Shown here in pieces: positions 4,778-20,213 of a stretch of DNA of 20,575 nt (position 1 is the first letter of the stretch; every line of letters starts with the position of its first letter). The stretch comes from Myxococcota bacterium (GTDB lineage: Bacteria; Myxococcota; JACRCW01): contig JBFMGU010000191.1 in NCBI GenBank assembly GCA_040752415.1, forward strand, positions 1 through 20,575, written 5' to 3'. Under the pieces are notes generated by a model. That model was not told where the DNA came from. It worked only from the letters and a program-made list of their open reading frames with translations, and did not search any database. A program made the translations under genes and the position numbers.

Positions 4778-7438
4778 TCAGCCGATGATGGACGCGGGCG
4801 TTGCCTCACGGAGCACGGTGGCGTGGCGCGCCAACAGCTCCCTGGCCAACTGCGCTTCCATGGGCGGGCCGTAGTGGAAGCCCTGGGCGAACTCGCAACC
4901 GAGCTTGCGCAGGTGCTGGTCGAGCGTGGCACTGGACACCCCCTCCGCCACCACCGCCAACCCCAGCGCGCGCGCCAGCTCCAAGGTGGACCAGAGAAGG
5001 GCCTCGCCCCGGGTGTCCGCGCCCGCCTCCACACCCGCAAGAAAAGACTTGTCCAGCTTGACGACGTCAATGGGGAGGTCTCTTAGCCGTGTTAGCGACG
5101 AATAGCCCGTGCCGAAGTCATCCAGCGCCAGACGCACACCGAGGCGCTTGAGGTCGCGCAGCCGGACCACGGCGGCGGCGTCCTCCAATGCCTGGCTCTC
5201 GGTGATCTCCAGGCACAGACCACCCGGGGGCAGCCCGCTGGCGTTCAACGCGTCTTCCACCCGCTGCACCAGGTCCGTCTCGCCCAGCTCCCGCGCGGAA
5301 ACGTTGACCGCCACGGTGAAGCTCCCCGCTCCGGGCACGTTCCGTCGCCACTCCGCGGCCTGGCAACAGGCTTGTTGCTGGACCCACCGCCCCATGCCCA
5401 CCACCAGGCGCGTGCGCTCCACCTCCGGCATGAAGGTGCCGGGAAGCAGCAGGCCGCGCACAGGGTGACGCCAGCGGATGAGCGCTTCAAACCCCACCAC
5501 GCTGCCGTCCGCCAGCCGCACCACGGGCTGGTAGTGCAGGACGAATTGGCCTTCGCGCAGCGCCGCGGGCACCTCGCTCTCGAGCTCCAGGCGGGAGACC
5601 ATCTCCGCGTGCAGGGTGTGGTCGTAACGTATCCAGCAGCCCTTGCCGCGCGCCTTGGCGGCGTACATCGCCACGTCGGCGTTCCGCACCACGGACGCGG
5701 CATCCTCCCCGGGCGCGTGCGAGAGCGCCACGCCCAGGCTCCCCGACACCGTGAGCGTCTTCTCCCCCAGCATGAACGGGCTCGAGAGCTTCGCCAGGAT
5801 GCGGTCCGCCATCCAGCACACCACCCGCTCGTCGGGCGGGTCGAGCAGCAGGACGGCAAACTCGTCCCCGCCCAGCCGCGCCACCAGGTCATCACGACGG
5901 ACCGCCGCGCGAATCCGGCTGGCCACCTCCACCAGGAGCGCATCACCCACGGGATGCCCAAGCGTGTCGTTGACCTGCTTGAAGCCGTCCAGGTCCAGCA
6001 GCAGCACCGCCACCGCGCCGGCGCGTCGGGTGGTGCAGGCGCGTTGCAGACGCTCGTTGAACAGCGCGCGGTTGGCCAGCGCCGTCAGCGGGTCGTGGAA
6101 GGCCTGGAACATGAGGTGGTCCTCGAGGCGACGCCGCTCCTGGACGTCCCGGCACGTCACCACCACCCCGTTCACGCCTTCCTTGTGCAGGCAGTTGTTG
6201 AGGAGCAGCTCGGTGTGTCGCCAGCCTCCGTCGCACTGGCGCCAGCGCACGCACACCGTCAGCGTTCCCTCGCGCTGCGGCACCAGGAGCGCGAACTTCT
6301 CCACGAAGACCGCGGTGTCCTCGGGGTGCAGCAGCTCCACCAGGCGCAGTCCCACCATGCTGTCCGGGGCGTACCCGAGGACACGTTGGGTCGAGCCGCT
6401 GTGGCAGAGGATGGTGGTGTCGTGGCCGAGCACGCAGATCACGTCGGAGCAGTGGTTCAGCAACGCGCGGAAACGGGCCTCCCTTGTCTCGGCCTGTTCG
6501 CGCAGGGCCAGGCCGTCCAACGTCGACGCCACCTGCGCACTGAGGTCCTGCAACGCTTCCCGGCACGCGGCGGACGGCGCTTCCGGCGTCTCCACCACCA
6601 GCAGGCCCACCACCTCACCGTGCGTCACCACCGGCTGGAGGCGGAGGTGCCACTGCAGGAGCGGGAGCCCCATGGCGTGAGCGTAACGCCGGGCTTCCGC
6701 GCCGCTCGCGGACTGGGGCCGGCCGCGCAGCACCGCGGACCAGGCGGCGCCCGGAGGCGTGCCCAGCGGCGAGAGCGCGTCAACTTCCCAGGCCCGCTCC
6801 CCCACCGCACCCGTCCACCGCCAGGTGCGGCTTGCAACCCAGGCCACCGACACACGACACCCCGCGTGCCCGTCCAACACCTCGAGCGCAGCGCGGGCCG
6901 CGACATGTTGGAGCGCGTCGCGGTTGTGCGCGGTGGCCAGGGCCACGCCCGCCCGGGTGAGCGCAGCCCGGCGCGCCAGGGAGCGGAGCAACAGCCGGCA
7001 CGCCACGCCCGAGGCCCACGCCGGTGCCAGCGTGGACACCACCCCGACGAGCAGGTGAGCAGCTCCCGGGACTTCCAGCGACGACGATGTTCCCGCGACC
7101 CCCGGCACCACCAGGCCCAGCGCGGAGCAGACCAGCGTGGGGAGCGAGATCCGCGGGCGCTGCTGCATGCCCTGCGTCATGGCCGCGGCGCCCAGGAGCG
7201 GGAGCGCGCTCCAGGGATCCGCAAGCCCGAAACCGATCACGACGAACGCCGCCACTTCCGCCGCCAGCGGCACCGGCCCCCGCCACGGTCTCCGCCATTC
7301 CCGTGCTCGCAGCAGCACCACGCACAGCACACCGAGCGCCACCTCGAGCCCGGCGGTGGCGTGGGTTGCGGTGGCACCGCCCAGCGCGTGGCCCAGGCAC
7401 CAGGCGGCACCCAGGAGCGTCAGTGCCAGGAGCAGCAT
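4778..7438 (-). CDS. Membrane-bound GAF-PAS-GGDEF-EAL diguanylate cyclase/phosphodiesterase
   Basis: ORF 4778..7585; ATG at 7438 (MLLLALTLL) precedes about 5-6 hydrophobic segments, and the true start is uncertain. GAF-like 'PVVTHGEVVGLLVV'; PAS 'RFRALLNHCSDVI...LGYAPDSMVG...DGGWRH...RDV'; GGDEF 'HDPLTALANR','DLDGFKQVNDTLGHPVGD','RRDDLVARLGGDEF'; EAL 'YQP','FEALIRW','VNVS','LEITE','LDDFGTGYSSL','KLDKSF','AEGV','QGF'. Confidence 0.95.
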   Translation of the reverse strand: MLLLALTLLGAAWCLGHALGGATATHATAGLEVALGVLCVVLLRAREWRRPWRGPVPLAAEVAAFVVIGFGLADPWSALPLLGAAAMTQGMQQRPRISLPTLVCSALGLVVPGVAGTSSSLEVPGAAHLLVGVVSTLAPAWASGVACRLLLRSLARRAALTRAGVALATAHNRDALQHVAARAALEVLDGHAGCRVSVAWVASRTWRWTGAVGERAWEVDALSPLGTPPGAAWSAVLRGRPQSASGAEARRYAHAMGLPLLQWHLRLQPVVTHGEVVGLLVVETPEAPSAACREALQDLSAQVASTLDGLALREQAETREARFRALLNHCSDVICVLGHDTTILCHSGSTQRVLGYAPDSMVGLRLVELLHPEDTAVFVEKFALLVPQREGTLTVCVRWRQCDGGWRHTELLLNNCLHKEGVNGVVVTCRDVQERRRLEDHLMFQAFHDPLTALANRALFNERLQRACTTRRAGAVAVLLLDLDGFKQVNDTLGHPVGDALLVEVASRIRAAVRRDDLVARLGGDEFAVLLLDPPDERVVCWMADRILAKLSSPFMLGEKTLTVSGSLGVALSHAPGEDAASVVRNADVAMYAAKARGKGCWIRYDHTLHAEMVSRLELESEVPAALREGQFVLHYQPVVRLADGSVVGFEALIRWRHPVRGLLLPGTFMPEVERTRLVVGMGRWVQQQACCQAAEWRRNVPGAGSFTVAVNVSARELGETDLVQRVEDALNASGLPPGGLCLEITESQALEDAAAVVRLRDLKRLGVRLALDDFGTGYSSLTRLRDLPIDVVKLDKSFLAGVEAGADTRGEALLWSTLELARALGLAVVAEGVSSATLDQHLRKLGCEFAQGFHYGPPMEAQLARELLARHATVLREATPASIIG

Positions 7439-7760
7439 GCGCAAGGGACGGAGGCCGGGTGTGTCCGGTGGCGTGGCAGCGTCCACCCGCGAAGCGCCAG
7501 CCTGGCGCGGGTCGCAGGGGGCCAGCACCGACGTGGCGCGCGTCGCGCGGTCCGGTTCTGAAGGGGAGGAAGTGGATCGACGCACGGTCTACCCGCGAGG
7601 TGGTTGGTTGCGCGCGCGCCCAGGGCAGCGCCGCAGGGAGAGATACGCAAAGGACACTGCTGCGACGCCGGTGACTCCTCGGGTGTCGTCGTGATCAGCG
7701 TGCGCGGGCTGCGTTGGCGCGACATCGCGACCGGGCGTCGCGGTGCAGCCGGCGTCACGT

Positions 7761-8708
7761 TCAGGGGACCGCACCCGCGTCCACCTGGTTCTTGCCCCGC
7801 GCCTTGGCGCGCAACAGCGCGCGGTCCGCGTGCGCCACCACGTCGCCGCTGGTCCTCCCGTGCGCCGGGTACGAGGCCACGCCCAGGCTCAGCGACGGGC
7901 GGACGGGCTCCGCGCCCTCCGGCACCCGCAAGCCCGACACGCGCTCACGCAGGCGGTGCGCCAAGGCCAGCGCGGCGGTGGTGTCGGCCTCCGGCATCAG
8001 GATCATGAACTCGTCGCCTCCCACGCGGAACCCCTGGTGGCGCGGCCCCAGCTCCGACCGGATGGCGCCGCCCACCTCACCCAGCAGACGGGAGCCCAGC
8101 TCTTGTCCCCGGGTGGCGTTGAGGTGTTGCAGGTTGTCCAGGTCCGCGCTGAGCAACCCGTAGCTGCGACCGTGCCGCTCACAACGCGCGTGCTCCTGGG
8201 CGAGCGCTTGGCGGAAGTGGCGGACGTTGTAGAGACCGGTGAGCTCATCCCGCAGGGCGTTGCTCTCCAGTTGCACCACCTGCCCGGCGGCCACGTGGAG
8301 GACCTGGCGCTGGATGTCCACCACCACGCGCCCGGTCTGCACGCGCTGTACCGACGCGCGCAGCGCCTGGGCCAGCAACGCCGGCGGCCAGCTCAGGTCC
8401 ACCACGGCGTCCGCGCCCAGGAGCGACACCGCTTCCGCGGCGCCCTCCCGTCGTGGATCCACGAACAGGACGAGCGGAATGGTGGTCTCCTCGGAGGCGT
8501 GCTGGACGCGCAGCGAGTCAGAGCCGGGCCACGGCTGGCACACCACGCCAATGCAGTCCGCGTCTCCTCCCGCAATCCGTTGCACCGCCTCCCGGGCCGC
8601 GCGCACGGTCCGGACGCTGAAACCCGGCAGCCCCTGCAGGCGGGGCTCCTCCGCCGCGCCCAGCACCAGCAATCTCAGATCGTCGCGCGCTGGCATCTCC
8701 GCCTCCAT
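7761..8708 (-). CDS. GGDEF dinucleotide cyclase with degenerate receiver-like N-terminus; Hypr-type signature (candidate 3',3'-cGAMP synthase)
   Basis: 'RDELTGLYNVR','ADLDNLQHLNATRGQELGSRLL','FRVGGDEF','SLSLGVA','ADRALLRAKARGKNQV'. Start is ATG 8708 or 8696 (GGAGG precedes 8696). The N-terminus has a REC-like pattern ('IPLVLF','LGADAVV') without the canonical acidic pocket. Confidence 0.9.
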   Translation of the reverse strand: MEAEMPARDDLRLLVLGAAEEPRLQGLPGFSVRTVRAAREAVQRIAGGDADCIGVVCQPWPGSDSLRVQHASEETTIPLVLFVDPRREGAAEAVSLLGADAVVDLSWPPALLAQALRASVQRVQTGRVVVDIQRQVLHVAAGQVVQLESNALRDELTGLYNVRHFRQALAQEHARCERHGRSYGLLSADLDNLQHLNATRGQELGSRLLGEVGGAIRSELGPRHQGFRVGGDEFMILMPEADTTAALALAHRLRERVSGLRVPEGAEPVRPSLSLGVASYPAHGRTSGDVVAHADRALLRAKARGKNQVDAGAVP

Positions 8709-8710
8709 CC

Positions 8711-10174
8711 TCAGGTGTCGTCCCACTTGCCAAGGCAACCGGTGTGCCGCAGCAGCACCAGGGTCATGTCGTCGTCCTGACGCGCCATGAAGGTCTGCAC
8801 GTCGTCGAGGATGTTGCGGACCGCCGCGGCGCCGGGCGCGCGGGCCATGCGCTTGAGCGCCTGGACCAGTCGTTCCTGGCCGTAGAACTCTCCCGCGGGG
8901 TTGGTGGCCTCGGTCACTCCGTCGGTGAAGAGCAGCGCCACGTCGCCCGGGTGGAGCGGAACGAACTTGTCCGGCACCGCTCCCTGCGGGTCATCCACCA
9001 CGCCCACCCAGCACCCCTCGGTGGGCACCTCCTCCACGTCGCCCGTGGCCGCCCGCAGGATGAGGACGTCCTGGTGCTTGCCCGCCATCCACATGCCGGA
9101 GTCGTCCAGGCGGATGACGGAGAGGGTCACGTAGCGACGCACGCCCAGGCGGGAGATGTTCTCGCGGATGGCGGCGTTGACCGCGCGCAGCACGTGGGAC
9201 GGGGACAATCCGGGGAAGTTGTTGACCACCGAGAAGATCCCCGTCTGCGTCATCATCATCACCAGCCCGGACTCCACGCCGTGGCCGGACACGTCACCAA
9301 TCCCCACCCATTTCTCACCCCACGACGTGCGGATGATGTCGTGGTAGTCGCCGCCCACCTCCGCGGCGGGATGCATGACCGAGGTGACGTCATAGGGTCC
9401 CAGCTTCTGGCTGCGCGGCAACAAGCCGGTCTGGATGTGCTTGGCCATCTCCATCTCGCCCCACAGCGCGTCACGGGCGGCCCGCAGCTCCGTCCGGGAC
9501 GCGTCCAGGTTGCGGTTGGTGCGCAGCAGCTCCTCCCGGGCCCAGAACTCGTTGGCGATCAGCAGGTGCTTCCGGTGGGTGATGGCCACCACGATCACCA
9601 CCGTGGCGACGAGGAAGAACAGGTTGTTGACCAGGAAGTCCGAGGCATGGCCCGGCGACCCGAGGCCGTTGACCAGGAGGTACATGGCGATGACGAGCAG
9701 GCCGTTGAGCGCGGAGTGGATGGCGCGCCACGGCAGGAACACGTTGACCGCGACGATCACCAGGTTGAGACCTGCATAGTAAGCGGAGTCGAAGCCCCCC
9801 AGGTCGCGGGTCATCAGCACGATCATCCCGCCCACCACCAGCGAGAAGACGTAACCGTGCAGGTGGGAAAGGCGACCCGGCTGCGTCCTGCGGATCACGA
9901 AGTACTGGGCCACCACCAGCAGCGTGGTGGCGGCGCGGTAGCCCCAGAAGCGCGGCAGCAGGCTGGTGGGCATGGTGAAGTAGTCAAGCACGCCGAACAG
10001 CGGGATCAGGCTGATTCCCAGCGCGGTGATGATGCGGGACCAGTCATGGATGATGCCGTTGAGGTGGAGGCCAAAACCCGAGGCCTCGTGCTCAACCGCC
10101 GCGGCAGCGGCCCGCGTGGGCGCGGGGTGGGCGGTGACATGTGCAAGTCCGTCAACGGCCATGGCTTCCCTCAT
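8711..10174 (-). CDS. Multi-TM sensor (PhcS-like) fused to SpoIIE/RsbU-type PP2C Ser/Thr phosphatase (SiaA-like)
   Basis: About 6 hydrophobic helices including 'FGVLDYFTMP', 'SAYYAGLNLVIV....LPW' and 'NNLFFLVATVVIV', then a coiled coil. PP2C motifs are intact: 'EMEMAKHIQTGLLP','EVGGDYHD','IGDVSGHG','LFTDGVTEA','QDDDMTLV'. Start is 10174 or 10162. Confidence 0.92.
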   Translation of the reverse strand: MREAMAVDGLAHVTAHPAPTRAAAAAVEHEASGFGLHLNGIIHDWSRIITALGISLIPLFGVLDYFTMPTSLLPRFWGYRAATTLLVVAQYFVIRRTQPGRLSHLHGYVFSLVVGGMIVLMTRDLGGFDSAYYAGLNLVIVAVNVFLPWRAIHSALNGLLVIAMYLLVNGLGSPGHASDFLVNNLFFLVATVVIVVAITHRKHLLIANEFWAREELLRTNRNLDASRTELRAARDALWGEMEMAKHIQTGLLPRSQKLGPYDVTSVMHPAAEVGGDYHDIIRTSWGEKWVGIGDVSGHGVESGLVMMMTQTGIFSVVNNFPGLSPSHVLRAVNAAIRENISRLGVRRYVTLSVIRLDDSGMWMAGKHQDVLILRAATGDVEEVPTEGCWVGVVDDPQGAVPDKFVPLHPGDVALLFTDGVTEATNPAGEFYGQERLVQALKRMARAPGAAAVRNILDDVQTFMARQDDDMTLVLLRHTGCLGKWDDT

Positions 10175-10178
10175 GAGC

Positions 10179-11570
10179 TCATTCTCGTCGGGTGACCTGC
10201 AGGAACATCTGTGCGCCCGTCTCCTCGAAGGTGATGCGCGCGTCCGCGCCGGGCAGTCCCTCGGTCAGCGCCAGGAACTCCTGCTCCGTGCGGTAGTAGA
10301 GGACCCAGTCCATCCAGTATTCCATGTACAGGCGCGTGGGATTTCCGACGTGGAAGTTCCCCACCACCAGCGTCCCGCCCGGCTCCAGCAACTCGTAGAG
10401 GCGGGCCAGCACCGTGCGCGCCACCGGCGGCGTCAGGTAGTCGAACAGGCCCATGGAATAGATGAAGCGGAACCGCCCCCAGAGGTCACGCAGGTTGGGC
10501 GTCTTGAGCATGGTGCGCACGGACTCATTGACCACGTTGACGCGCAGCTGGAACGCGCCCATCCGCTCCAGCTCACGGATGCCCTCCCGTGCCGCCGCCA
10601 ATGCCATGGGGTCCTGGTCCAGCAACGTGCACTCCAGGCGGTGGACGTCGCGCGCCACCAGCACCACGTCCCGCAGCTCCCAGGCGGGGCCGCACGCCAC
10701 GGACATGAAACGGAAGGGCTCGTCGCCGCGCTGCGGGAAGCGCTCCTGCACCTGGCGCAGCAACCCGGCAATGAGCGCGCGACGGTTGCGCACCGCCTGC
10801 GCCGCCGCGGAATCCAGCGGGTGCTTGTGCAGCAGCCGGTTGAACACCGTGGTGCCCTGGTAGGCGTTCTCGTAGATCATCTGCATCATCTGGGAGTCCC
10901 CGGCATAACCGCGCGGCTTGAGGTTGGTGCGGGCCAGGAACGCGGAACCGAGGATGAACTCCCAAACGTGACGTCGGAAATAGAAGCCGTGCCGCTCGTG
11001 ATCTTCCTTGTCGAAGCCCGCGGTCACTTCCTTGAGGGACTCCAGGGACTGGTCGAGGAAACGCACGAAGGCGGGCCCCTCCGCACGGATGATGGCCCGC
11101 TGTGCCGCGTCCCGGACCACCGGCGCCTCCAGCGCGCACAACCGGTCCTGCTCCGAGAAGAACCGTTTGTAGACGGACAGGTCGAACGTGGTGTTGGCGG
11201 TGTACTCGCGGAAAGCCGGTTGGATGCGTTCCCGCTGCTGCAGGAACAGGGGAAGGTTGTGGAAGGACCGCTTGATGTCCACGAACCGCTTCTCCCGGAA
11301 GAGCGCGCGGAAGTCGTAGACGTCATCCAGGAACACCAGCCGACCCGTGAAGCCTTCCGGTGCGTCCGGCTCCAGCCGACACCGGCTGAACCGGAAGGTC
11401 TGGCTGTCCACCTCCACGTCCAGCGCGTCGAACTGCCGCGGGGGCTCCGGCGGTGAAGCGCCCAGGGCCACGTACACCGAGACGTTGGACGCGTAGCCCA
11501 GCGTCACGCCGCAGGGACGGCCTTCCTGGAACAGGGTCCCGCGCAGGGTGGTGGTGCTGGTGGCGGCCAC
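10179..11570 (-). CDS. phcB: PhcB-like class I SAM-dependent methyltransferase (3-hydroxy fatty acid methyl ester signal synthase family)
   Basis: 463 aa with 'KPRGYAGD..MM..IY', 'AQAVRNR', SAM motif 'MSVACGPAWE', 'LLDQD', 'FIYSMGLFDYL', 'PGGTLVVGNF' and 'MEYWMDWVLYYR'. Motif order and length match Ralstonia PhcB as recalled; not confirmed by search. The symbol denotes family similarity only. Confidence 0.75.
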   Translation of the reverse strand: MAATSTTTLRGTLFQEGRPCGVTLGYASNVSVYVALGASPPEPPRQFDALDVEVDSQTFRFSRCRLEPDAPEGFTGRLVFLDDVYDFRALFREKRFVDIKRSFHNLPLFLQQRERIQPAFREYTANTTFDLSVYKRFFSEQDRLCALEAPVVRDAAQRAIIRAEGPAFVRFLDQSLESLKEVTAGFDKEDHERHGFYFRRHVWEFILGSAFLARTNLKPRGYAGDSQMMQMIYENAYQGTTVFNRLLHKHPLDSAAAQAVRNRRALIAGLLRQVQERFPQRGDEPFRFMSVACGPAWELRDVVLVARDVHRLECTLLDQDPMALAAAREGIRELERMGAFQLRVNVVNESVRTMLKTPNLRDLWGRFRFIYSMGLFDYLTPPVARTVLARLYELLEPGGTLVVGNFHVGNPTRLYMEYWMDWVLYYRTEQEFLALTEGLPGADARITFEETGAQMFLQVTRRE

Positions 11571-11573
11571 GTC

Positions 11574-11942
11574 TCATTCCCCACGCAGCTCAATCCGGCG
11601 ATCCAGCGTCTCGAAGACCTTCATCGCGGAGAAGCTGAGCTGCTGCCATTTCAGACCGGAGCGGTACACCATGCGTACGCGCGCAAGGCCGGTGCGCGCG
11701 GACTCCATCAAACGCACCAGGGGCGTGAACGTGGAGGAGTTCATGTAGTCCAGCGCCCGGAAGTCCAGCACCAACAGCTTTCCGCTGGCCTCCGCGGAAG
11801 CCAGGGCCCGGTCCAGGATGGGCGCCAGGAACCGCCCGGGCTCCCGCTCGTTGCTGCGCCCCGTCCACCGCAAGTGCACGGTGTCCGTGGTCTCCTCCAC
11901 CTCGATCTGCAGGGTCTTCTCGGTAAAGACGCTTCGTTCCAT
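11574..11942 (-). CDS. SiaC/DUF1987-like STAS-fold phosphoacceptor (anti-anti-sigma-like) protein
   Basis: 'LRWTGRSNEREPGRFLAP.L', 'LVLDFRALDYMNSSTF..L' and 'MVY....WQ'. This parallels the SiaC G.S..E...F..P / YxNTSS phospho-loop. GGAG upstream. Confidence 0.75.
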   Translation of the reverse strand: MERSVFTEKTLQIEVEETTDTVHLRWTGRSNEREPGRFLAPILDRALASAEASGKLLVLDFRALDYMNSSTFTPLVRLMESARTGLARVRMVYRSGLKWQQLSFSAMKVFETLDRRIELRGE

Positions 11943-11964
11943 GGGTCAGCTCCCGGAAAAGGCA

Positions 11965-12444
11965 CTAACGCCGGTGCACGGCGGAGATGGCCAGCACGCC
12001 CGACTCGTCGACGTAGAAGTCCAGGATGGCCTGCCCCTCGTAGGCAATCCGGACCAGTCCCAGGCCACTGCCGCCTTCGCGCTGCGGTTGGGTGGACAGC
12101 AGCTTGAGCCGGTCCACGTAGGCTTCGAACGGATCCTGGAACCCGCGGATCCACTGAATGGTGTCGTCCAGGTGGCGCAGCTGATCGTCGTCGGGGGAGA
12201 CCGGGCTCTTCACCTCGATGGTCACATCGCCTTCGCCAATCCTCATGCCCAGGTCGATCTTGTCGGAGCTGGAGAAGCGCCCGTACTTCACGGCGTTTTC
12301 GAGCAGCTCCTGGGTCACCATCGACAACGCATAGGCGGCATCCGGTCCCAGTCCCTCGCGCCCAAAGAAGTCGACGGAGACATCCCAGATGTCCTTGATG
12401 GTGCACCAATTCGGTTCCAGCTTGAGCGCCAGTTCCTGGCTCAT
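11965..12444 (-). CDS. Stand-alone HATPase_c Ser/Thr kinase (SiaB/RsbW-like)
   Basis: ATG 12444 (MSQELAL) with GGAG upstream. N-box 'VTQELLENAVKYG', G-box 'GGSGLGLVRIAYEG'. There is no HisKA/H-box. Confidence 0.8.
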   Translation of the reverse strand: MSQELALKLEPNWCTIKDIWDVSVDFFGREGLGPDAAYALSMVTQELLENAVKYGRFSSSDKIDLGMRIGEGDVTIEVKSPVSPDDDQLRHLDDTIQWIRGFQDPFEAYVDRLKLLSTQPQREGGSGLGLVRIAYEGQAILDFYVDESGVLAISAVHRR

Positions 12445-12623
12445 GGTGTCTTCACTCCGGGCGTGATTGCGCGTGGCATTTCCCCCCGTCCACGCGCCGG
12501 CGTGGCTTTCAACCACGGGCGAGCGCGGTTCCTTCCCGGAGTTCCCGGTTGCCGCGCACAGGATGCAACGAGACGTTCTGCGGGTTGCAGTCCAACAGCT
12601 GGCATGAACGCGGGAGCACGGTT

Positions 12624-13022
12624 GTGAAGCAACTCACCCTGGGAGACCTCTCCATCGACGTCGACACCGCCGCCCCCGGCGCCATCCACCTGCGCTGGCG
12701 CGGGCGGAGCAACAACCAGAATCCGGCGACAACCCTGCAGCCCTTCCTGGAGTTGCAGCTGGCGCACGCGCGGCAGCGGGGGGTGCGCGTGGAGATGCAC
12801 TTCGAGGAGCTGACGTACTTCAACTCCTCCACCATCGCCGTGCTGCTTCACGGGATACAGGAAGCCCACGCCCGCACCGTCCCCCTGGTCCTCCACTATG
12901 ACCGTCGACTGCGCTGGCAGGCCCACAACTTCGAGGCGCTGCGCGTGCTGCAATCCACGGACGACCTGCTGCGCCTGGATGGCGGCGCAGGTGAAATCAA
13001 CCCGACGCCACGGCGAAGTTGA
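12624..13022 (+). CDS. Second SiaC/DUF1987-like STAS-fold protein, divergently transcribed
   Basis: GTG 12624 after GGGAG. 'IHLRWRGRSNNQNPATTLQPFL','MHFEELTYFNSSTIAVL','LHYDRRLRWQAHNFEALRVL' align motif for motif with 11574..11942. Confidence 0.8.
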   Translation: MKQLTLGDLSIDVDTAAPGAIHLRWRGRSNNQNPATTLQPFLELQLAHARQRGVRVEMHFEELTYFNSSTIAVLLHGIQEAHARTVPLVLHYDRRLRWQAHNFEALRVLQSTDDLLRLDGGAGEINPTPRRS

Positions 13023-13028
13023 GACGAA

Positions 13029-13352
13029 TCACCGCGGCGGCGGGTCCGTACTCTCGGAGGGCGTGACGTACTGACGCAGGTCCGCCAGCAGGTTCTCGAT
13101 GGCGTCGGGGCGGCAGAACAATTTCAGGGCCACCTGGAGCTCGGGGACCATCCGTTCCACGTCGGACATTTGGATGTCCTGGGGGCTGAGACCGCTCCTT
13201 GCCACGGCCCGACCCAGGAGCATCTCGACGTTGAGCGCACTCAAGTAGCGGAGCAATACCTCGCGCAGGCCCGCCAGCGCCACGCTGCTTGCGCGCTGCG
13301 CTCCGACGGACGAGCCTGGACGTGTGGTGTGTGCTGCGGACGGCATGGCCAT
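13029..13352 (-). CDS. Small hypothetical helical protein (~107 aa)
   Basis: The 3' half of ORF 13029..13574 is protein-like ('LREVLLRYLSALNVEMLLGRAVARSGLSPQDI...LQVALKLFC'). Start is ATG 13352 or 13346; the upstream extension looks non-coding. Confidence 0.6.
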   Translation of the reverse strand: MAMPSAAHTTRPGSSVGAQRASSVALAGLREVLLRYLSALNVEMLLGRAVARSGLSPQDIQMSDVERMVPELQVALKLFCRPDAIENLLADLRQYVTPSESTDPPPR

Positions 13353-14250: not shown

Positions 14251-14757
14251 CTACGCAGCAGTGCCCTGCCTGCGACGCAATCCACGCGCGTGGTTGACTG
14301 CAGCCTGGACCTCCACGCTCGCCAGGTTGACGTTCTCGGTCGCGCGAAGTTGGGCGCACACCCAATCCGCCGCGTGGTCCACGCGGTCAAAGACCTCTTC
14401 AGGCAGGAGACGTTTGGTCAATGCGTTGAGCGTCGTGGCGATGCTGCGAACCGTGGCCGCACGGAATCCGTTGCCCTCATAGACCACGGCCACGGCGGCC
14501 AGGCGGTCCGCATAGAGGCGCCGCCCCTCCATGAGCTCCGCGCGGGCCTCAGCCGTTGGAAGCGGGGAGTTCCGTTCCACCACCACCACCATCCCCACCT
14601 TCCTGCCCTTCCATGACGACGTACCTCGGGCAATCACCGTGTGCATGCGACGCAGATCCGCTGTGCTTCCACCGCGAAGAATGAGGAGGAGCAGGCCATT
14701 CCACGTCGCGACGCAATGGGCGTCGTCATCTTCAAGGACATTGAGAGCGTCAACCAT
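14251..14757 (-). CDS. Hypothetical protein, probable STAS/SEC14-like alpha/beta fold
   Basis: GGAGG RBS before ATG 14757. The pattern 'GMVVVVE..SPLP..EAR.EL...LAAVAVVYEG.GFRAA.VRSI...VFD.VD.AADW' resembles myxobacterial STAS/SEC14-like small proteins (from recall). Confidence 0.65.
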   Translation of the reverse strand: MVDALNVLEDDDAHCVATWNGLLLLILRGGSTADLRRMHTVIARGTSSWKGRKVGMVVVVERNSPLPTAEARAELMEGRRLYADRLAAVAVVYEGNGFRAATVRSIATTLNALTKRLLPEEVFDRVDHAADWVCAQLRATENVNLASVEVQAAVNHARGLRRRQGTAA

Positions 14758-15517: not shown

Positions 15518-15949
15518 TCACGTGCTGCGCTTGATGAACCCGCCCAGCAATGCGCCCAGGAACCCCAGCACGGTGGTGTAGAGCCACACGCCCATCAGCA
15601 CACCCGCCATCACCGGCGGCTCGCGCAGCCTGGAGAGGATGCCGCCGTCCCCGCCTTCCGTGGGCGCCACGCGGGAGAGCACCACCGCGCCCACCAGGCC
15701 CACTCCCGTCGCCACCAGGACCCCCATCACGGCGCCAATGAGCGCGGCGTGACCGGAGCGCGCGCGCACCCGCGAACCAGCCAACATCCCGCCAATCAGC
15801 GGCCCCAACGGCCCGGTGATGATGTGGATGGGCGGCGGGATGATGAGCACCAGCGCCAGTCCCACACCGACCAGTGCGGCCATCACCACCTGTCCCGCCG
15901 TGGCCGGTGGCGCCGCCTGCTCCGACGGAGCTTCCGTCTGCGTCTCCAT
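15518..15949 (-). CDS. Hypothetical 4-TM Gly-rich membrane protein
   Basis: ATG 15949 with GGAGG upstream. Four hydrophobic segments with 'IHIITGPLGPLIGGMLAG' and 'LGFLGALLGG'. Confidence 0.7.
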   Translation of the reverse strand: METQTEAPSEQAAPPATAGQVVMAALVGVGLALVLIIPPPIHIITGPLGPLIGGMLAGSRVRARSGHAALIGAVMGVLVATGVGLVGAVVLSRVAPTEGGDGGILSRLREPPVMAGVLMGVWLYTTVLGFLGALLGGFIKRST

Positions 15950-16202
15950 GGATTGCCTCCGCGACAAGGCGCCCCGACCGATTAGCGTCCTCCCCGACGC
16001 GGCGTCCATGAAAGAAATGCCGCACGGGGACTCGGGTGCGCCGCACCGCGCGGCGGGCTGTCGCACCAGCTCGGTTGGTCCTCACTTCGTCGGAGGACGC
16101 CAGGCGACCGACGTCCTGGCGGTGCGACGTCCGTGTCACTGGTCTACGCTTGCCCTCGTGCCACGAGCCACATGGGCACCTTCTCCCCGCGCCCAGGCAG
16201 CC

Positions 16203-17456
<1,254 letters not shown>

Positions 17457-17561
17457 CGCAACGCATCCAGCGTCGGCGGAACCTAGAACACCGGGAGGAT
17501 GGGCAAGGCAGGAAGCACTGTTAGCGTTCCCTTCGCCTGGCCTGCCCAGAGGAGCATCCGG

Positions 17562-20213
17562 ATGAAGCGCTTTCCCGTCGTCATGGCATTGGCAGCGTTG
17601 TCCACCGCGGCCCTTCCCGCGCTGGCGGAGCACGCGGAGCTGACCAGTGCCGCGCTGGAGGCCCGTGCCCGGGAGGCGCTCCTGGCCACGCCGCGCGTGG
17701 GCATCTACGTCCCCATCCCGCGCGAGTACGCGCCGCCGCCGGGCCAGACCCGTGCCATCTACGCGCCGGGCGGACCGCCGGTGCCCATCTTCATCAACCG
17801 CAACGGCGGCACCTACTACCGCGGCCAGGACAACTCCGGCGCCAACATCTCCTCCATCGTCCCCGGGCAGAGCGCGTACGTGGACGCGTTTGGCGGCAGC
17901 AACACCACCTGGAACGCCATGATGGACTGCATCCGGGAGCAGTTCGCACGCTTCAACGTGGAGGTCACCGACGTGGAGCCCAGCCGCGCGCACGTGGAGT
18001 GCGTGGTGGGCGGCAGCCCCGACCAGCTGGGCCTTCCCAGCGGCGTGGGCGGCGTGGCGCCGATCGATCCCTACGGTTGCGACGTGATCGACAGCGCCAT
18101 CGTCTACGTGTTTGCCGACGTGATCGGGAACAGCGCGCAGGTGCTGTGCGAGGTGGCGGCGCAGGAGATTGCCCACTCCTTCTCGCTGGACCATGAGCTG
18201 TTGTGCCAGGACCCCATGACGTACCTGAACGGGTGCGGCGCCAAGAGCTTCCAGAACGTGGACGCGCAGTGCGGCGAGTACCAGACGCGCGACTGCATCT
18301 GTAACCGCGACAGCCAGAACTCCGTGCAGATCATGCTGGAGAAGCTGGGCCCCTCGACGGGCGGCGGCTCCAGCAGCAGCGGCGGTCCCACCGACACCGT
18401 GCCGCCCACCATCCAGCTCACCAGCCCCACCACCGGCTCGTCGCTGCCGGCCAACAGCACCATCGAGGTGGTGGCGGAAGCCAACGACGACCAGGGCGTG
18501 CAGGACATCGAGCTCATCTGGCCCTACACCGGCAACATCTTCCCCTGCCCCATGCAGAGCCAGAACGTGAACTGCGCGCGCACCGGCAACACCGCCACGT
18601 GGCTGTTGCGGGTGGGCACCGGCACGCGTTCCTTCCAGGCGCGCGCGCGGGATGCGGCGGGCAATGAGACGTTGAGCGCGGCGGTGAGCATCACGCTGGG
18701 CGACGGGACGCCTCCGCCCGAGGACAACAACCCGCCCGTGGTCTCGGTGGTCAGCCCCGACGACGGCGCGGTGCTCCCCGCCAACAGCACCATCGAGGTG
18801 GTGGCCAACGCTTCCGACGACGTGGCGCTGGACGCGGTGGAGCTGGTGTGGCCCTACACCAATGAGGCCTTTGGCTGCCCCAGCCAGCGCCAGGGCGTCA
18901 CCTGCACGCAGAACGGCAGCACCTTCACCTGGTCGCTGCCGGTGGGCACGGGGGAGCGGCCCTTCCAGATCCGCGCCACCGACCAGGCCGGGCACCTCTC
19001 CATCACGCCGCAGCGCACCATCTACCTCGACGACGGCTCGGGCCCGCCGGCGGACACGCAGGATCCGCAGGTGATCATCAACCGCCCCGCCGACGGAGCC
19101 ACGCTGTCCGCGGGCACGCTGGAGGTGGCGGCCACGGTGACCGACAACGTGGGCGTGGAGAGCGTGGAGCTGCTGTGGAACGACGGCGCCAGCACCTATC
19201 CCTGCCCCACCAACCAGGGCGCCACCTGCTCTTCGCTCGGGACCAGCTACGTGTGGTCCATCACCGTGCCCACCGGCGAGTACGGCTTCACGGTGCGTGC
19301 GCGTGACGCCGCGGGCAACGAGAAGGTGACCACGCGGTACTCGGTCACCGTCACCGACGGACCGGTCACCAGCGACGACGACACCAGCGAGCCCAACGAC
19401 TCCTTTGGCGAGGCCACGCCGGTGGGCTGCGGCGCGTCGCTCTCGCTCATCTCGCTGCCGGGCAACCCCGACTGGTTCTCGCTCACGGTGGCGGAGGGCA
19501 CGCAGCTGCAGCTGGACGCGGACTCCACGGAGCAGGCCAACCTGGAGATGCGCGTGGCCACCGGCCCCAACACCGCGGACCTCATTGCGCTGGCCAGCGG
19601 CCCGGCCCTCGACGAGCGGATCATCCTCAACGCGCCCGCCGCGGCCCTGGGCATCCTGGTGCAGCAGACCGGCGGCGGCAGGGGCGCGTACACGCTGCGG
19701 GTGGCCTGCAACGGCGGAGGAAACAACAACGGCGGCCAGGACGACAACGCCGAGCCCAACAACACGCCCGCGCAGGCGGCGGTGATGTTCTGCGGTCAGA
19801 CCCAGAGCTACGTGCTGCAGGACGAGGACCACTTCAAGGTGCAGGTGCGTGAGGGCGACGAGCTGGTGGCCTCGGTGCAGGCCAGCGGCGAGGTGCAGCT
19901 GGAGATCCTGGACGCCAACGGCGCGGCCCTCCCCGACGCCACCGCCACGGGTGCGAACACCTCGGTCAGTGCGCCCAACCTGGTCGCGGGAGCGCACCAC
20001 ATCCGCGTGGCGCCGACGGTGGGGGCCGGGATGAGCTACTCGCTGACCATTGCGTGCAATCCCGCGGGCGGCGCCGGCGGCGACGTCGACGAGGAGCCGG
20101 AGGCGCGCAGCGTGCTGTCGTGCGTCCACGCCAGCACGGGTTCGCGTGGTTTCTCACCGCTGCTCGCATTCGGTCTGGTGTTGCTGGTGCGTCACGCCCG
20201 TCGTCGTCGCTGA
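17562..20213 (+). CDS. Secreted metzincin-like protein (QExxHxxxxxH) with 3 Ig-like (Big) repeats, 2 PPC-like domains and a MYXO-CTERM-like anchor
   Basis: GAGGAG RBS, signal peptide 'MKRFPVVMALAALSTAALPALA'. 'AQEIAHSFSLDH' plus Met-turn-like 'DPMTY'. Three repeats of 'D..PP.....P..G..L......V.A...D..GV..VEL.W...ARA.D.AG'. Two 'D..EPN.....A..V.CG' PPC-like units. Tail 'SCVHA...LLAFGLVLLVRHARRRR'. Confidence 0.88.
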   Translation: MKRFPVVMALAALSTAALPALAEHAELTSAALEARAREALLATPRVGIYVPIPREYAPPPGQTRAIYAPGGPPVPIFINRNGGTYYRGQDNSGANISSIVPGQSAYVDAFGGSNTTWNAMMDCIREQFARFNVEVTDVEPSRAHVECVVGGSPDQLGLPSGVGGVAPIDPYGCDVIDSAIVYVFADVIGNSAQVLCEVAAQEIAHSFSLDHELLCQDPMTYLNGCGAKSFQNVDAQCGEYQTRDCICNRDSQNSVQIMLEKLGPSTGGGSSSSGGPTDTVPPTIQLTSPTTGSSLPANSTIEVVAEANDDQGVQDIELIWPYTGNIFPCPMQSQNVNCARTGNTATWLLRVGTGTRSFQARARDAAGNETLSAAVSITLGDGTPPPEDNNPPVVSVVSPDDGAVLPANSTIEVVANASDDVALDAVELVWPYTNEAFGCPSQRQGVTCTQNGSTFTWSLPVGTGERPFQIRATDQAGHLSITPQRTIYLDDGSGPPADTQDPQVIINRPADGATLSAGTLEVAATVTDNVGVESVELLWNDGASTYPCPTNQGATCSSLGTSYVWSITVPTGEYGFTVRARDAAGNEKVTTRYSVTVTDGPVTSDDDTSEPNDSFGEATPVGCGASLSLISLPGNPDWFSLTVAEGTQLQLDADSTEQANLEMRVATGPNTADLIALASGPALDERIILNAPAAALGILVQQTGGGRGAYTLRVACNGGGNNNGGQDDNAEPNNTPAQAAVMFCGQTQSYVLQDEDHFKVQVREGDELVASVQASGEVQLEILDANGAALPDATATGANTSVSAPNLVAGAHHIRVAPTVGAGMSYSLTIACNPAGGAGGDVDEEPEARSVLSCVHASTGSRGFSPLLAFGLVLLVRHARRRR

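Follow-up and report, generated by a model that had tools for sequence, protein, structure and literature searches.

A GGDEF protein with Hypr-type marks beside a SiaC-like partner-switch cassette in a Myxococcota bacterium

Organization of the locus

The window (the whole 20,575-nucleotide stretch analysed here, contig JBFMGU010000191.1 of assembly GCA_040752415.1 from a Myxococcota bacterium) carries a GGDEF gene whose product was named P0001. A PP2C phosphatase, a methyltransferase, a SiaC-like phosphoprotein (C1) and a GHKL kinase are encoded upstream of it on the same strand, and a second SiaC-like gene (C2) diverges from these (Table 1). The PP2C, GHKL kinase, STAS phosphoprotein and GGDEF genes are all present in one operon at this locus, with 2 nt between the PP2C stop and the start of the cyclase gene. 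Within 7400-13300, neither a sigma-70-type promoter nor an intrinsic terminator was detected. No sequencing run is listed for the locus, which is uninformative about expression and assembly accuracy. An alternative start (TTG at 8738) would give P0001 a longer frame of 325 aa, and its counterpart in the database, P0002, has 311 aa. The gene is unlike a pseudogene because its GC3 of 0.90 resembles that of the neighbouring genes (0.86-0.94); the frame is open and codon usage is normal, and both a pseudogene and a frameshift were rejected.

Table 1. Coordinates of the cyclase gene, its parts and the cassette genes in the window.
Feature	Position	Strand	Remarks
P0001 cyclase gene	7761..8708	(-)	315 aa; pseudo-receiver/stalk/GGDEF
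Receiver-fold domain, residues ~11-124	8337..8678	(-)	without acidic pair, phospho-Asp and Lys; subfamily motif D-x3-D-x2-W-P
Helical stalk, residues 125-153	8250..8336	(-)	Gln133 at 8310-8312; candidate SiaC docking site
GGDEF domain	7785..8258	(-)	keeps D189, N197, R228, GGDEF, D295, K302, K306
Val162, cross-dimer Arg position (GacA Tyr304)	8223..8225	(-)	non-Arg, Hypr-type state
Metal-/base-binding segment D189-S206	8091..8144	(-)	Ser206 (Hypr mark); Gln194 for Lys, Ala198 for Asp, Gln202 for His
Lost I-site, G-P-R-H for RxxD	8037..8048	(-)	Arg retained in 31/33 subfamily members
GGDEF motif, Asp type	8007..8021	(-)	confirmed by codon check
Membrane-anchored PP2C phosphatase	8711..10174	(-)	~5 hydrophobic helices; SpoIIE domain, E 3.7e-35; metal-binding Asp residues
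Class I methyltransferase	10179..11570	(-)	463 aa; degenerate PilZ-like N-terminus
SiaC-like STAS phosphoprotein, type C1	11574..11942	(-)	Y-M-N-S-S-T; Pfam SiaC E 9e-4, under cut-off
SiaB/RsbW-like GHKL kinase	11965..12516	(-)	N-box and G-box present; ATG 12444 may be the true start
Second SiaC-like gene, type C2	12549..13022	(+)	Y-F-N-S-S-T; divergent; homologous to C1, probability 99.9

The genes were compared with the family models of the Sia system and missed the cut-offs for SiaD (118.6 of 290 bits) and SiaA (61.2 of 700 bits) in NCBIfam and for SiaC (19.3 of 24.5 bits) in Pfam. The PP2C matched the SiaA model with an E value of 6.8e-17 and the kinase matched the slr1658 superfamily with 1.2e-12, each under the cut-off. 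When the C1 model was compared with 48,161 chains, the best match was SiaC (6KKO; Z 12.9, rmsd 2.7, 116 aligned), tied with RsbV (Z 12.1). No Pfam match of any kind was found in the PP2C N-terminus here or in 8 orthologues, and the genome gave no match to MASE8, the sensor domain of the membrane partner in PhcB/PhcS quorum sensing.

PhcB is the quorum-sensing synthase of Ralstonia, with its output through PhcS/PhcR. Many close homologues of the methyltransferase carry the automatic JGI label of a PhcB-type 3-hydroxypalmitate methyl ester synthase. The output here is a PP2C/partner switch and not PhcS/PhcR. For the methyltransferase, neither a relative in the PDB at E 0.01 nor a match in NCBIfam was found, and its PilZ-like part lacks, by inspection, RxxxR and DxSxxG, which we take to be the PilZ motifs.

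The SiaABCD system of Pseudomonas aeruginosa (7E6G, 6KKO) is reported to have the same PP2C, GHKL kinase, STAS protein with Y-x-N-(S/T)-S and stalked GGDEF protein in one operon (PMC8457831). Compared with it, the present locus adds the PhcB-like methyltransferase and the second SiaC-like gene, its cyclase is optional, and four of its genes are far under the Sia cut-offs. SiaD is described with Asp155, GGEEF, c-di-GMP as the product and no receiver domain (PMC8457831), whereas P0001 has Ser206, GGDEF and a receiver-fold domain.

Other genes were noted in the window. A 935-aa membrane/GAF/PAS/GGDEF/EAL protein with canonical cyclase residues (FK, ND, GH, GD) and intact-looking EAL motifs is encoded at 4778-7585 (-), on the same strand and 175 nt downstream of the cyclase; at other loci, the cassette was not observed with an EAL gene next to it. 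The gene at 14251-14757 (-) encodes a 168-aa protein that is STAS-like by eye, with no Pfam or NCBIfam match and three paralogues in the genome. Two predicted exported proteins follow, one with a long Ser tract and thrombospondin type 3 repeats (15816-17456 (+)) and the other with Ig-like and PPC domains (17499-20213 (+)), whose N-terminal H-E-x-A-H motif may be that of a metalloprotease.

Domain architecture and base pocket of P0001

The predicted structure of P0001 (mean pLDDT 91.9) has a five-strand/five-helix receiver fold, one helix spanning residues 109-152 and then the GGDEF domain, which was matched by Pfam at residues 151-308 (E 2.3e-34). No Pfam match was found to the N-terminus, and the structural neighbours of residues 8-155 in the Atlas were Response_reg domains (TM 0.77-0.80). 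In the columns that we take to hold the receiver acidic pair (after strand 1), the Asp (after strand 3) and the Lys (after strand 5), the subfamily described below has no conserved Asp or Lys and an invariant Trp is present instead. All 28 subfamily rows have Trp107 and Gln133, and in 27 of them 21 residues separate Gln133 from the DxLT hinge. Because the phospho-site columns are unconserved and both the two residues and the spacing are fixed, the predicted input of P0001 is a pseudo-receiver with a length-fixed stalk. The top Foldseek matches to the whole model were WspR, DgcR and PleD, which share its overall fold, but theirs are reported as phosphorylatable receivers with Asp-type pockets (PMC8041772). 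The pseudo-receiver/stalk motif, with W and Q kept, also precedes a hybrid histidine kinase (P0214) and a DUF4388 domain (P0218), which suggests that it may be a portable input module.

The preliminary description of this DNA had claimed an Asp-to-Ser change in the base-binding segment, an intact GGDEF motif and the absence of the RxxD I-site (GPRH), and all of these were borne out when the codons were checked. On the minus strand, Asn197 is AAC at 8118-8120 and Ser206 is TCC at 8091-8093; Leu193-Gln194 replaces FK (8127-8132), Ala198 replaces D (8115-8117) and Gln202 replaces H (8103-8105). The HMMER alignments of P0001 with GacA (6D9M) and SiaD (7E6G) are free of gaps across D189-S206, and therefore Ser206 is at the position of GacA Ser348 and PleD Asp344, which is Asp in canonical cyclases. 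The Ser was placed in this column and nowhere else, and misalignment as its origin was rejected.

In the Hypr enzyme GacA, Ser348 and Asn339 are reported to bind the base; the Ser-type function requires GGDEF, failing with GGEEF, and also requires the fourth Glu, and cGAMP is favoured when the cross-dimer residue is not Arg (PMC6456294). P0001 has all of these marks, namely Ser206, Asn197, GGDEF, the metal Asp D189, the fourth Glu E233 and Val162, with Ser206 and Val162 standing in place of the guanine-reading Asp (D344) and the cross-dimer Arg of canonical diguanylate cyclases. In the same report, the D-to-S mutation inactivated four of five canonical enzymes, and the fifth, the GGDEF-type GSU3350, stayed a pure diguanylate cyclase making c-di-GMP only (PMC6456294). 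Because a protein having both Ser and GGDEF made c-di-GMP alone, the Hypr marks are not sufficient for cGAMP synthesis. The I-site does not indicate the product because the known Hypr enzymes are described as retaining it as well.

GacA (GSU1658/Gmet_1914, the Rec-Hypr protein of Geobacter) thus shares Ser348, Asn339, GGDEF, the fourth Glu, the non-Arg residue at 304 and a receiver-fold input with P0001, as far as it is described (PMC6456294). GacA keeps F-K, N-D, G-H and the RxxD I-site, whereas P0001 has lost the Lys, the His and the I-site. The equivalents of K332, D336 and H340 are Q194, A198 and Q202 in P0001, and each of the three is kept in 32 of 32 other Ser/Thr-type domains.

The subfamily and its linkage with the cassette

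A word-based homologue search gave no full-length orthologue with P0001 as a single sequence and one with a 3-row alignment; the orthologues were obtained from whole-genome and profile searches. The profile of the N-terminal part of P0001 found 36 proteins among 1.84 billion representatives, and the 25 with a GGDEF domain were kept, leaving out the window's own entry, 5 fragments, 2 fusions (the hybrid kinase P0214 and the DUF4388 protein P0218) and 3 weak unrelated matches. These 25, the query, 5 genes from genome loci and 2 further sequences constitute the 33-member set, from which 2 near-copies and 1 partial gene were omitted. The GGDEF domains used for comparison were gathered by similarity to the query, near-copies included, and this collection is therefore biased towards it.

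The specificity site was found to be Ser in 22 of the 33 members, Gly in 6, Ala in 2, Thr in 2, Asn in 1 and Asp in none (Ser/Thr, 24/33), whereas 172 of the 216 other GGDEF domains collected have Asp. On these counts, Ser206 is more than a chance single substitution. The motif centre Asp (GGD) is present in all 33 members and in just 63 of the 172 Asp-type domains of this query-biased collection, so the Ser/GGD pattern of the subfamily fits the ‘Goldilocks’ rule for Ser/Thr enzymes. The catalytic core is largely constant (metal Asp 32/33, Asn 32/33, fourth Glu 31/33 and Lys442 equivalent 32/33), and Lys/Arg332, His340 and the I-site Arg were counted in 30, 29 and 31 members, respectively. The subfamily departs from other Hypr-type proteins in having LK for FK and in losing the Asp after Asn; Leu replaces Phe331 in all 33 members, and the Asp336 equivalent is found in none, with Thr there in 17. 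It differs from GacA in the same two features, in its variable specificity residue and in its receiver without a phospho-site. The cross-dimer Arg is retained in 12 of the 33. Both partners of the Asp/Tyr dimer contact are relaxed (Asp 0/33, Tyr 10/33) as against 32/32 and 31/32 in other Ser-type domains. Two subfamily members (L038 415-2358 and P0208) carry an N-terminal EAL domain and a shorter stalk without the Gln motif, with Ser or Gly at the specificity site. Outside the subfamily, there are GGDEF groups with Asn, Ala or Glu at this site and the rest intact (P0145, P0149, P0073, P0075, P0121, L010, P0045, P0083 and P0168).

When the subfamily profile was compared with 58 PDB sequences, GacA ranked first (181 vs 167 bits), whereas with P0001 alone SiaD was first and GacA fifth. 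When the diagnostic columns were left out of the tree, 29 of 30 members formed one group (SH-aLRT 81), and in a second such tree 16 of 17 members came together at 94/92, with the bootstrap unsettled; in these trees, which did not include GacA itself, the grouping of the subfamily with other Ser-type enzymes was not resolved. The subfamily was found in 8 of the 401 sampled genomes of the phylum, and because its relatives are Archangiaceae and Myxococcales, Myxococcota is inferred as its host group. No earlier description of such a subfamily was found in the literature covered, which did not extend to subscription journals and figure supplements.

The claim that the Ser marks a cGAMP-making Hypr enzyme held in part. 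Every published sequence mark is present in P0001 and the subfamily profile is closest to GacA, but the Ser is not fixed, being Asn in the syntenic orthologue and Gly, Ala or Thr elsewhere, and Ser together with GGDEF was insufficient in GSU3350. 3',3'-cGAMP is a plausible product of P0001.

The linkage of the cyclase with the cassette was monitored across genomes. The cyclase adjoins a SiaC-like gene or a kinase/SiaC/methyltransferase/PP2C cassette in 8 of the 11 subfamily genes with flanks, and the other 3 do not. The linked cyclases are found after the PP2C (2), before the kinase (3) or directly before the SiaC-like gene (3); three of these 8 genes have overlapping stop/start codons and 6 have Ser at the specificity site. 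A close orthologue of the methyltransferase occurs in 44 of the 401 genomes (43 without the unpublished G195), and 7 of the 8 subfamily-bearing genomes, which as kin are not independent, fall among these 44. These results together indicate, at the level of sequence and gene order, that Ser206 is the mark of a separate Hypr-like subfamily with ties to a SiaC-type switch.

The cassette itself was followed in 40 other loci picked from the strongest matches, with the three loci known to carry the cyclase excluded and a flank of at least 1.5 kb on both sides in 29 of the 40. All 40 have the PP2C, 37 have the kinase, 37 have a SiaC-like gene and none has the subfamily cyclase. Because the cassette is far commoner and none of these loci carries the cyclase, the cyclase is by gene content an optional output of the cassette. 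The view of P0001 as the output cyclase of an operon under a Sia-like switch is therefore upheld as far as the link with SiaC-like genes recurs in different gene orders, but the cyclase is an optional add-on. Three GGDEF genes near other cassette loci were considered as counterparts and rejected as unrelated Asp-type genes, two being FHA-like with GGEEF and one being cut by the locus end. The cassette has a wide distribution in the phylum (loci L046-L085); it frequently comes with two or three SiaC-like genes and mostly without an evident output gene.

Proposed function of P0001 and its alternatives

SiaC Thr68 is reported to insert between the SiaD stalk helices at Ser82 and Gln86 (PMC8457831). 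An offset of 51, from sequence and structure, puts P0001 Gln133 on SiaD Ser82, and the S-x3-Q motif of SiaD itself is absent from the P0001 stalk. The complex model of two copies of P0001 residues 8-165 with two of C1 scored 0.58, and the best of three controls 0.00; the runs agreed in at least 91% of the contacts with partner pLDDT of at least 88. Of 157 solved complexes, 116 reached the mark used, as did 2 of 215 mismatches; those that reached it with scores of 0.60 or below were just 18 of the 157 and both mismatches. The modelled C1-stalk complex is thus a weak pass, which may reflect its likeness to the solved SiaC-SiaD complex.

P0001 has the receiver/stalk/GGDEF domain order, a Ser/GGD base pocket, no phospho-acceptor and a gene linked to the cassette. 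The reading we prefer, tentatively and at a little below even probability, is that it would be a dinucleotide cyclase from a Hypr-like side branch, with weak activity and promiscuous for purines, activated by a partner and not by phosphorylation. The membrane PP2C and the kinase would control whether the first Ser of N-S-S in the SiaC-like protein is phosphorylated, and this setting could be driven by a self-made methyl-ester signal of the PhcB-like enzyme. By analogy with SiaC and SiaD, the unphosphorylated SiaC-like protein would clamp the stalk around Gln133 and bring two GGDEF domains into a productive dimer, and this part we consider slightly more probable than its contrary. The Ser pocket would then take ATP or GTP, giving 3',3'-cGAMP along with c-di-GMP and c-di-AMP, with the turnover lowered by the Lys-to-Gln and His-to-Gln changes and the feedback removed by the loss of the I-site.

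The genome was also searched for other components of cGAMP signalling. Three further Ser-type GGDEF proteins (G000 C301, C416 and C157) have FK, ND and H intact and are good cGAMP synthase candidates; because of these, the organism probably makes cGAMP regardless of P0001. The single GEMM-I riboswitch of the genome (L096 1112-1205 (-)) has the c-di-GMP consensus G at the discriminating position, as presumably mapped from G20/A20 onto the Rfam consensus. Discrimination by G20/A20 in GEMM-I is described in PMC6140456. Downstream of the riboswitch is an ORF that, from its motifs as read by eye, resembles a Ser/Thr protein kinase, which is unusual as a target. Among 10 HD-GYP-like matches, 8 have RxxK/R and 2 were unreadable at that motif. 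No cGAMP-type riboswitch or HD-GYP of the cGAMP-specific RxxQ/N type was found in the assembly, which is 96.8% complete, so that either could have been missed.

A rather unlikely alternative, to which the losses in this copy nevertheless point, is that P0001 is catalytically dead or decaying and has kept its binding of NTP or of the SiaC-like partner, serving as a sink, scaffold or dominant-negative, with cGAMP coming from the three intact Hypr-type enzymes, which keep FK, ND and H. P0001 deviates at 7 of the 45 positions with conservation of at least 80% across the subfamily (K194Q, H202Q, R221G, D224H, A226G, D283H and R308Q), the second worst of 31 members. It is the only subfamily copy with Gln at both the Lys332 and His340 equivalents, and no other copy combines the loss of the Lys and the His with that of the I-site. 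Of the 239 domains whose core is intact, 5 are without the Lys, 4 without the His and 3, P0001 among them, without both. The closest orthologue, from the same operon in G001, has Asn at the specificity site and is 45% identical, compared with 55-60% for the four cassette genes. It keeps the Lys and the His. The Q for Lys, the GQ and the lost I-site are private losses of P0001, whereas NA/NT and L-for-F are subfamily traits. An earlier caution that with LQ, NA and GQ the activity could be low or absent is thus serious for the Q for Lys and the GQ, but NA and L-for-F belong to the subfamily. Two other members are clearly degenerate (GGDSF and GGDAF, one of them cassette-linked), so erosion apparently recurs in the subfamily, and all 40 other cassette loci do without this cyclase. 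On the other hand, P0001 keeps the residues reported as essential or as metal- or phosphate-binding (D327, N335, E370 and K442 equivalents) as well as the fourth Glu and the DxLT hinge, its stalk has exactly the subfamily length, and its codon usage is normal. The Lys is placed over the alpha-phosphate in the DgcR model, where the Asp and the His are proposed dimer contacts (PMC8041772), and in PleD its side chain is described as contacting the pyrophosphate, but one review gives the phosphate contact of K332 as through the main chain alone, which argues against a dead enzyme. Having lost conserved catalytic-site residues, P0001 may be weak or dead.

We regard it as improbable that P0001 is an active ordinary diguanylate cyclase whose Ser pocket prefers GTP, such that the switch controls c-di-GMP as in SiaABCD. 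This would agree with the pure diguanylate cyclase activity reported for the D-to-S mutant of GSU3350 with GGDEF, with the cross-dimer Arg in 12 and the I-site Arg in 31 of the 33 members, with the c-di-GMP type of the riboswitch and with the conventional GGDEF-EAL gene 175 nt downstream. However, the guanine-reading Asp is found in none of the 33 members, P0001 has Val162 for the cross-dimer Arg, a state linked to cGAMP-dominant output, and the I-site is uninformative, being kept in known Hypr enzymes too. It is very improbable that the subfamily lies beyond Hypr and makes mainly c-di-AMP, another dinucleotide or a linear product in a pocket where Ser, Gly, Ala, Thr or Asn is tolerated, F is replaced by L and the Asp after Asn is missing. 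The variation of the specificity site among small residues on a constant catalytic core and the Asp/Tyr dimer contact relaxed on both sides, unlike in other Ser-type domains, are in its favour, but Ser is still the majority (22/33) and the Asn is kept as in GacA.

In the accounts available, the known Hypr enzymes are under receiver or GAF control, and the one activator described is cAMP for GacB. GacA and GacB of Myxococcus xanthus and Bd0367 of Bdellovibrio, from related predatory lineages, are likewise Ser-type GGDEF cGAMP synthases, but they are Rec- or GAF-regulated, the I-site is kept in Bd0367, and no partner switch is described for them in the portions of these reports at hand (10.1101/600031, PMC9140294). 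The three other Ser-type GGDEF proteins of the genome resemble GacA/GacB/Bd0367, whereas P0001 does not. The pocket of P0001 appears GacA-like and its regulation SiaD-like, a likeness that does not place it in either family.

Taken as a whole, the locus might represent a quorum-sensing-like circuit in Myxococcota-type bacteria, which we consider unlikely as a complete chain. In it, a PhcB-like methyl ester would act through the membrane PP2C and the SiaC-like phosphoswitch on a portable pseudo-receiver/stalk and thereby on Hypr-like cyclases with a tunable pocket, so that a partner switch and cell density would control cGAMP or another adenine-containing dinucleotide. No description of such control of cGAMP was found in the literature covered. 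If P0001 is dead, the Ser mark alone over-calls cGAMP synthases, and the intact members P0190, P0191 and the L099 gene would be more suited to assay. The subfamily is a natural mutagenesis series, with Ser, Gly, Ala, Thr and Asn on an invariant GGD core, that tests the reach of the Ser-for-Asp rule. If true, a branch controlled by a partner switch would be a new input to cGAMP signalling.
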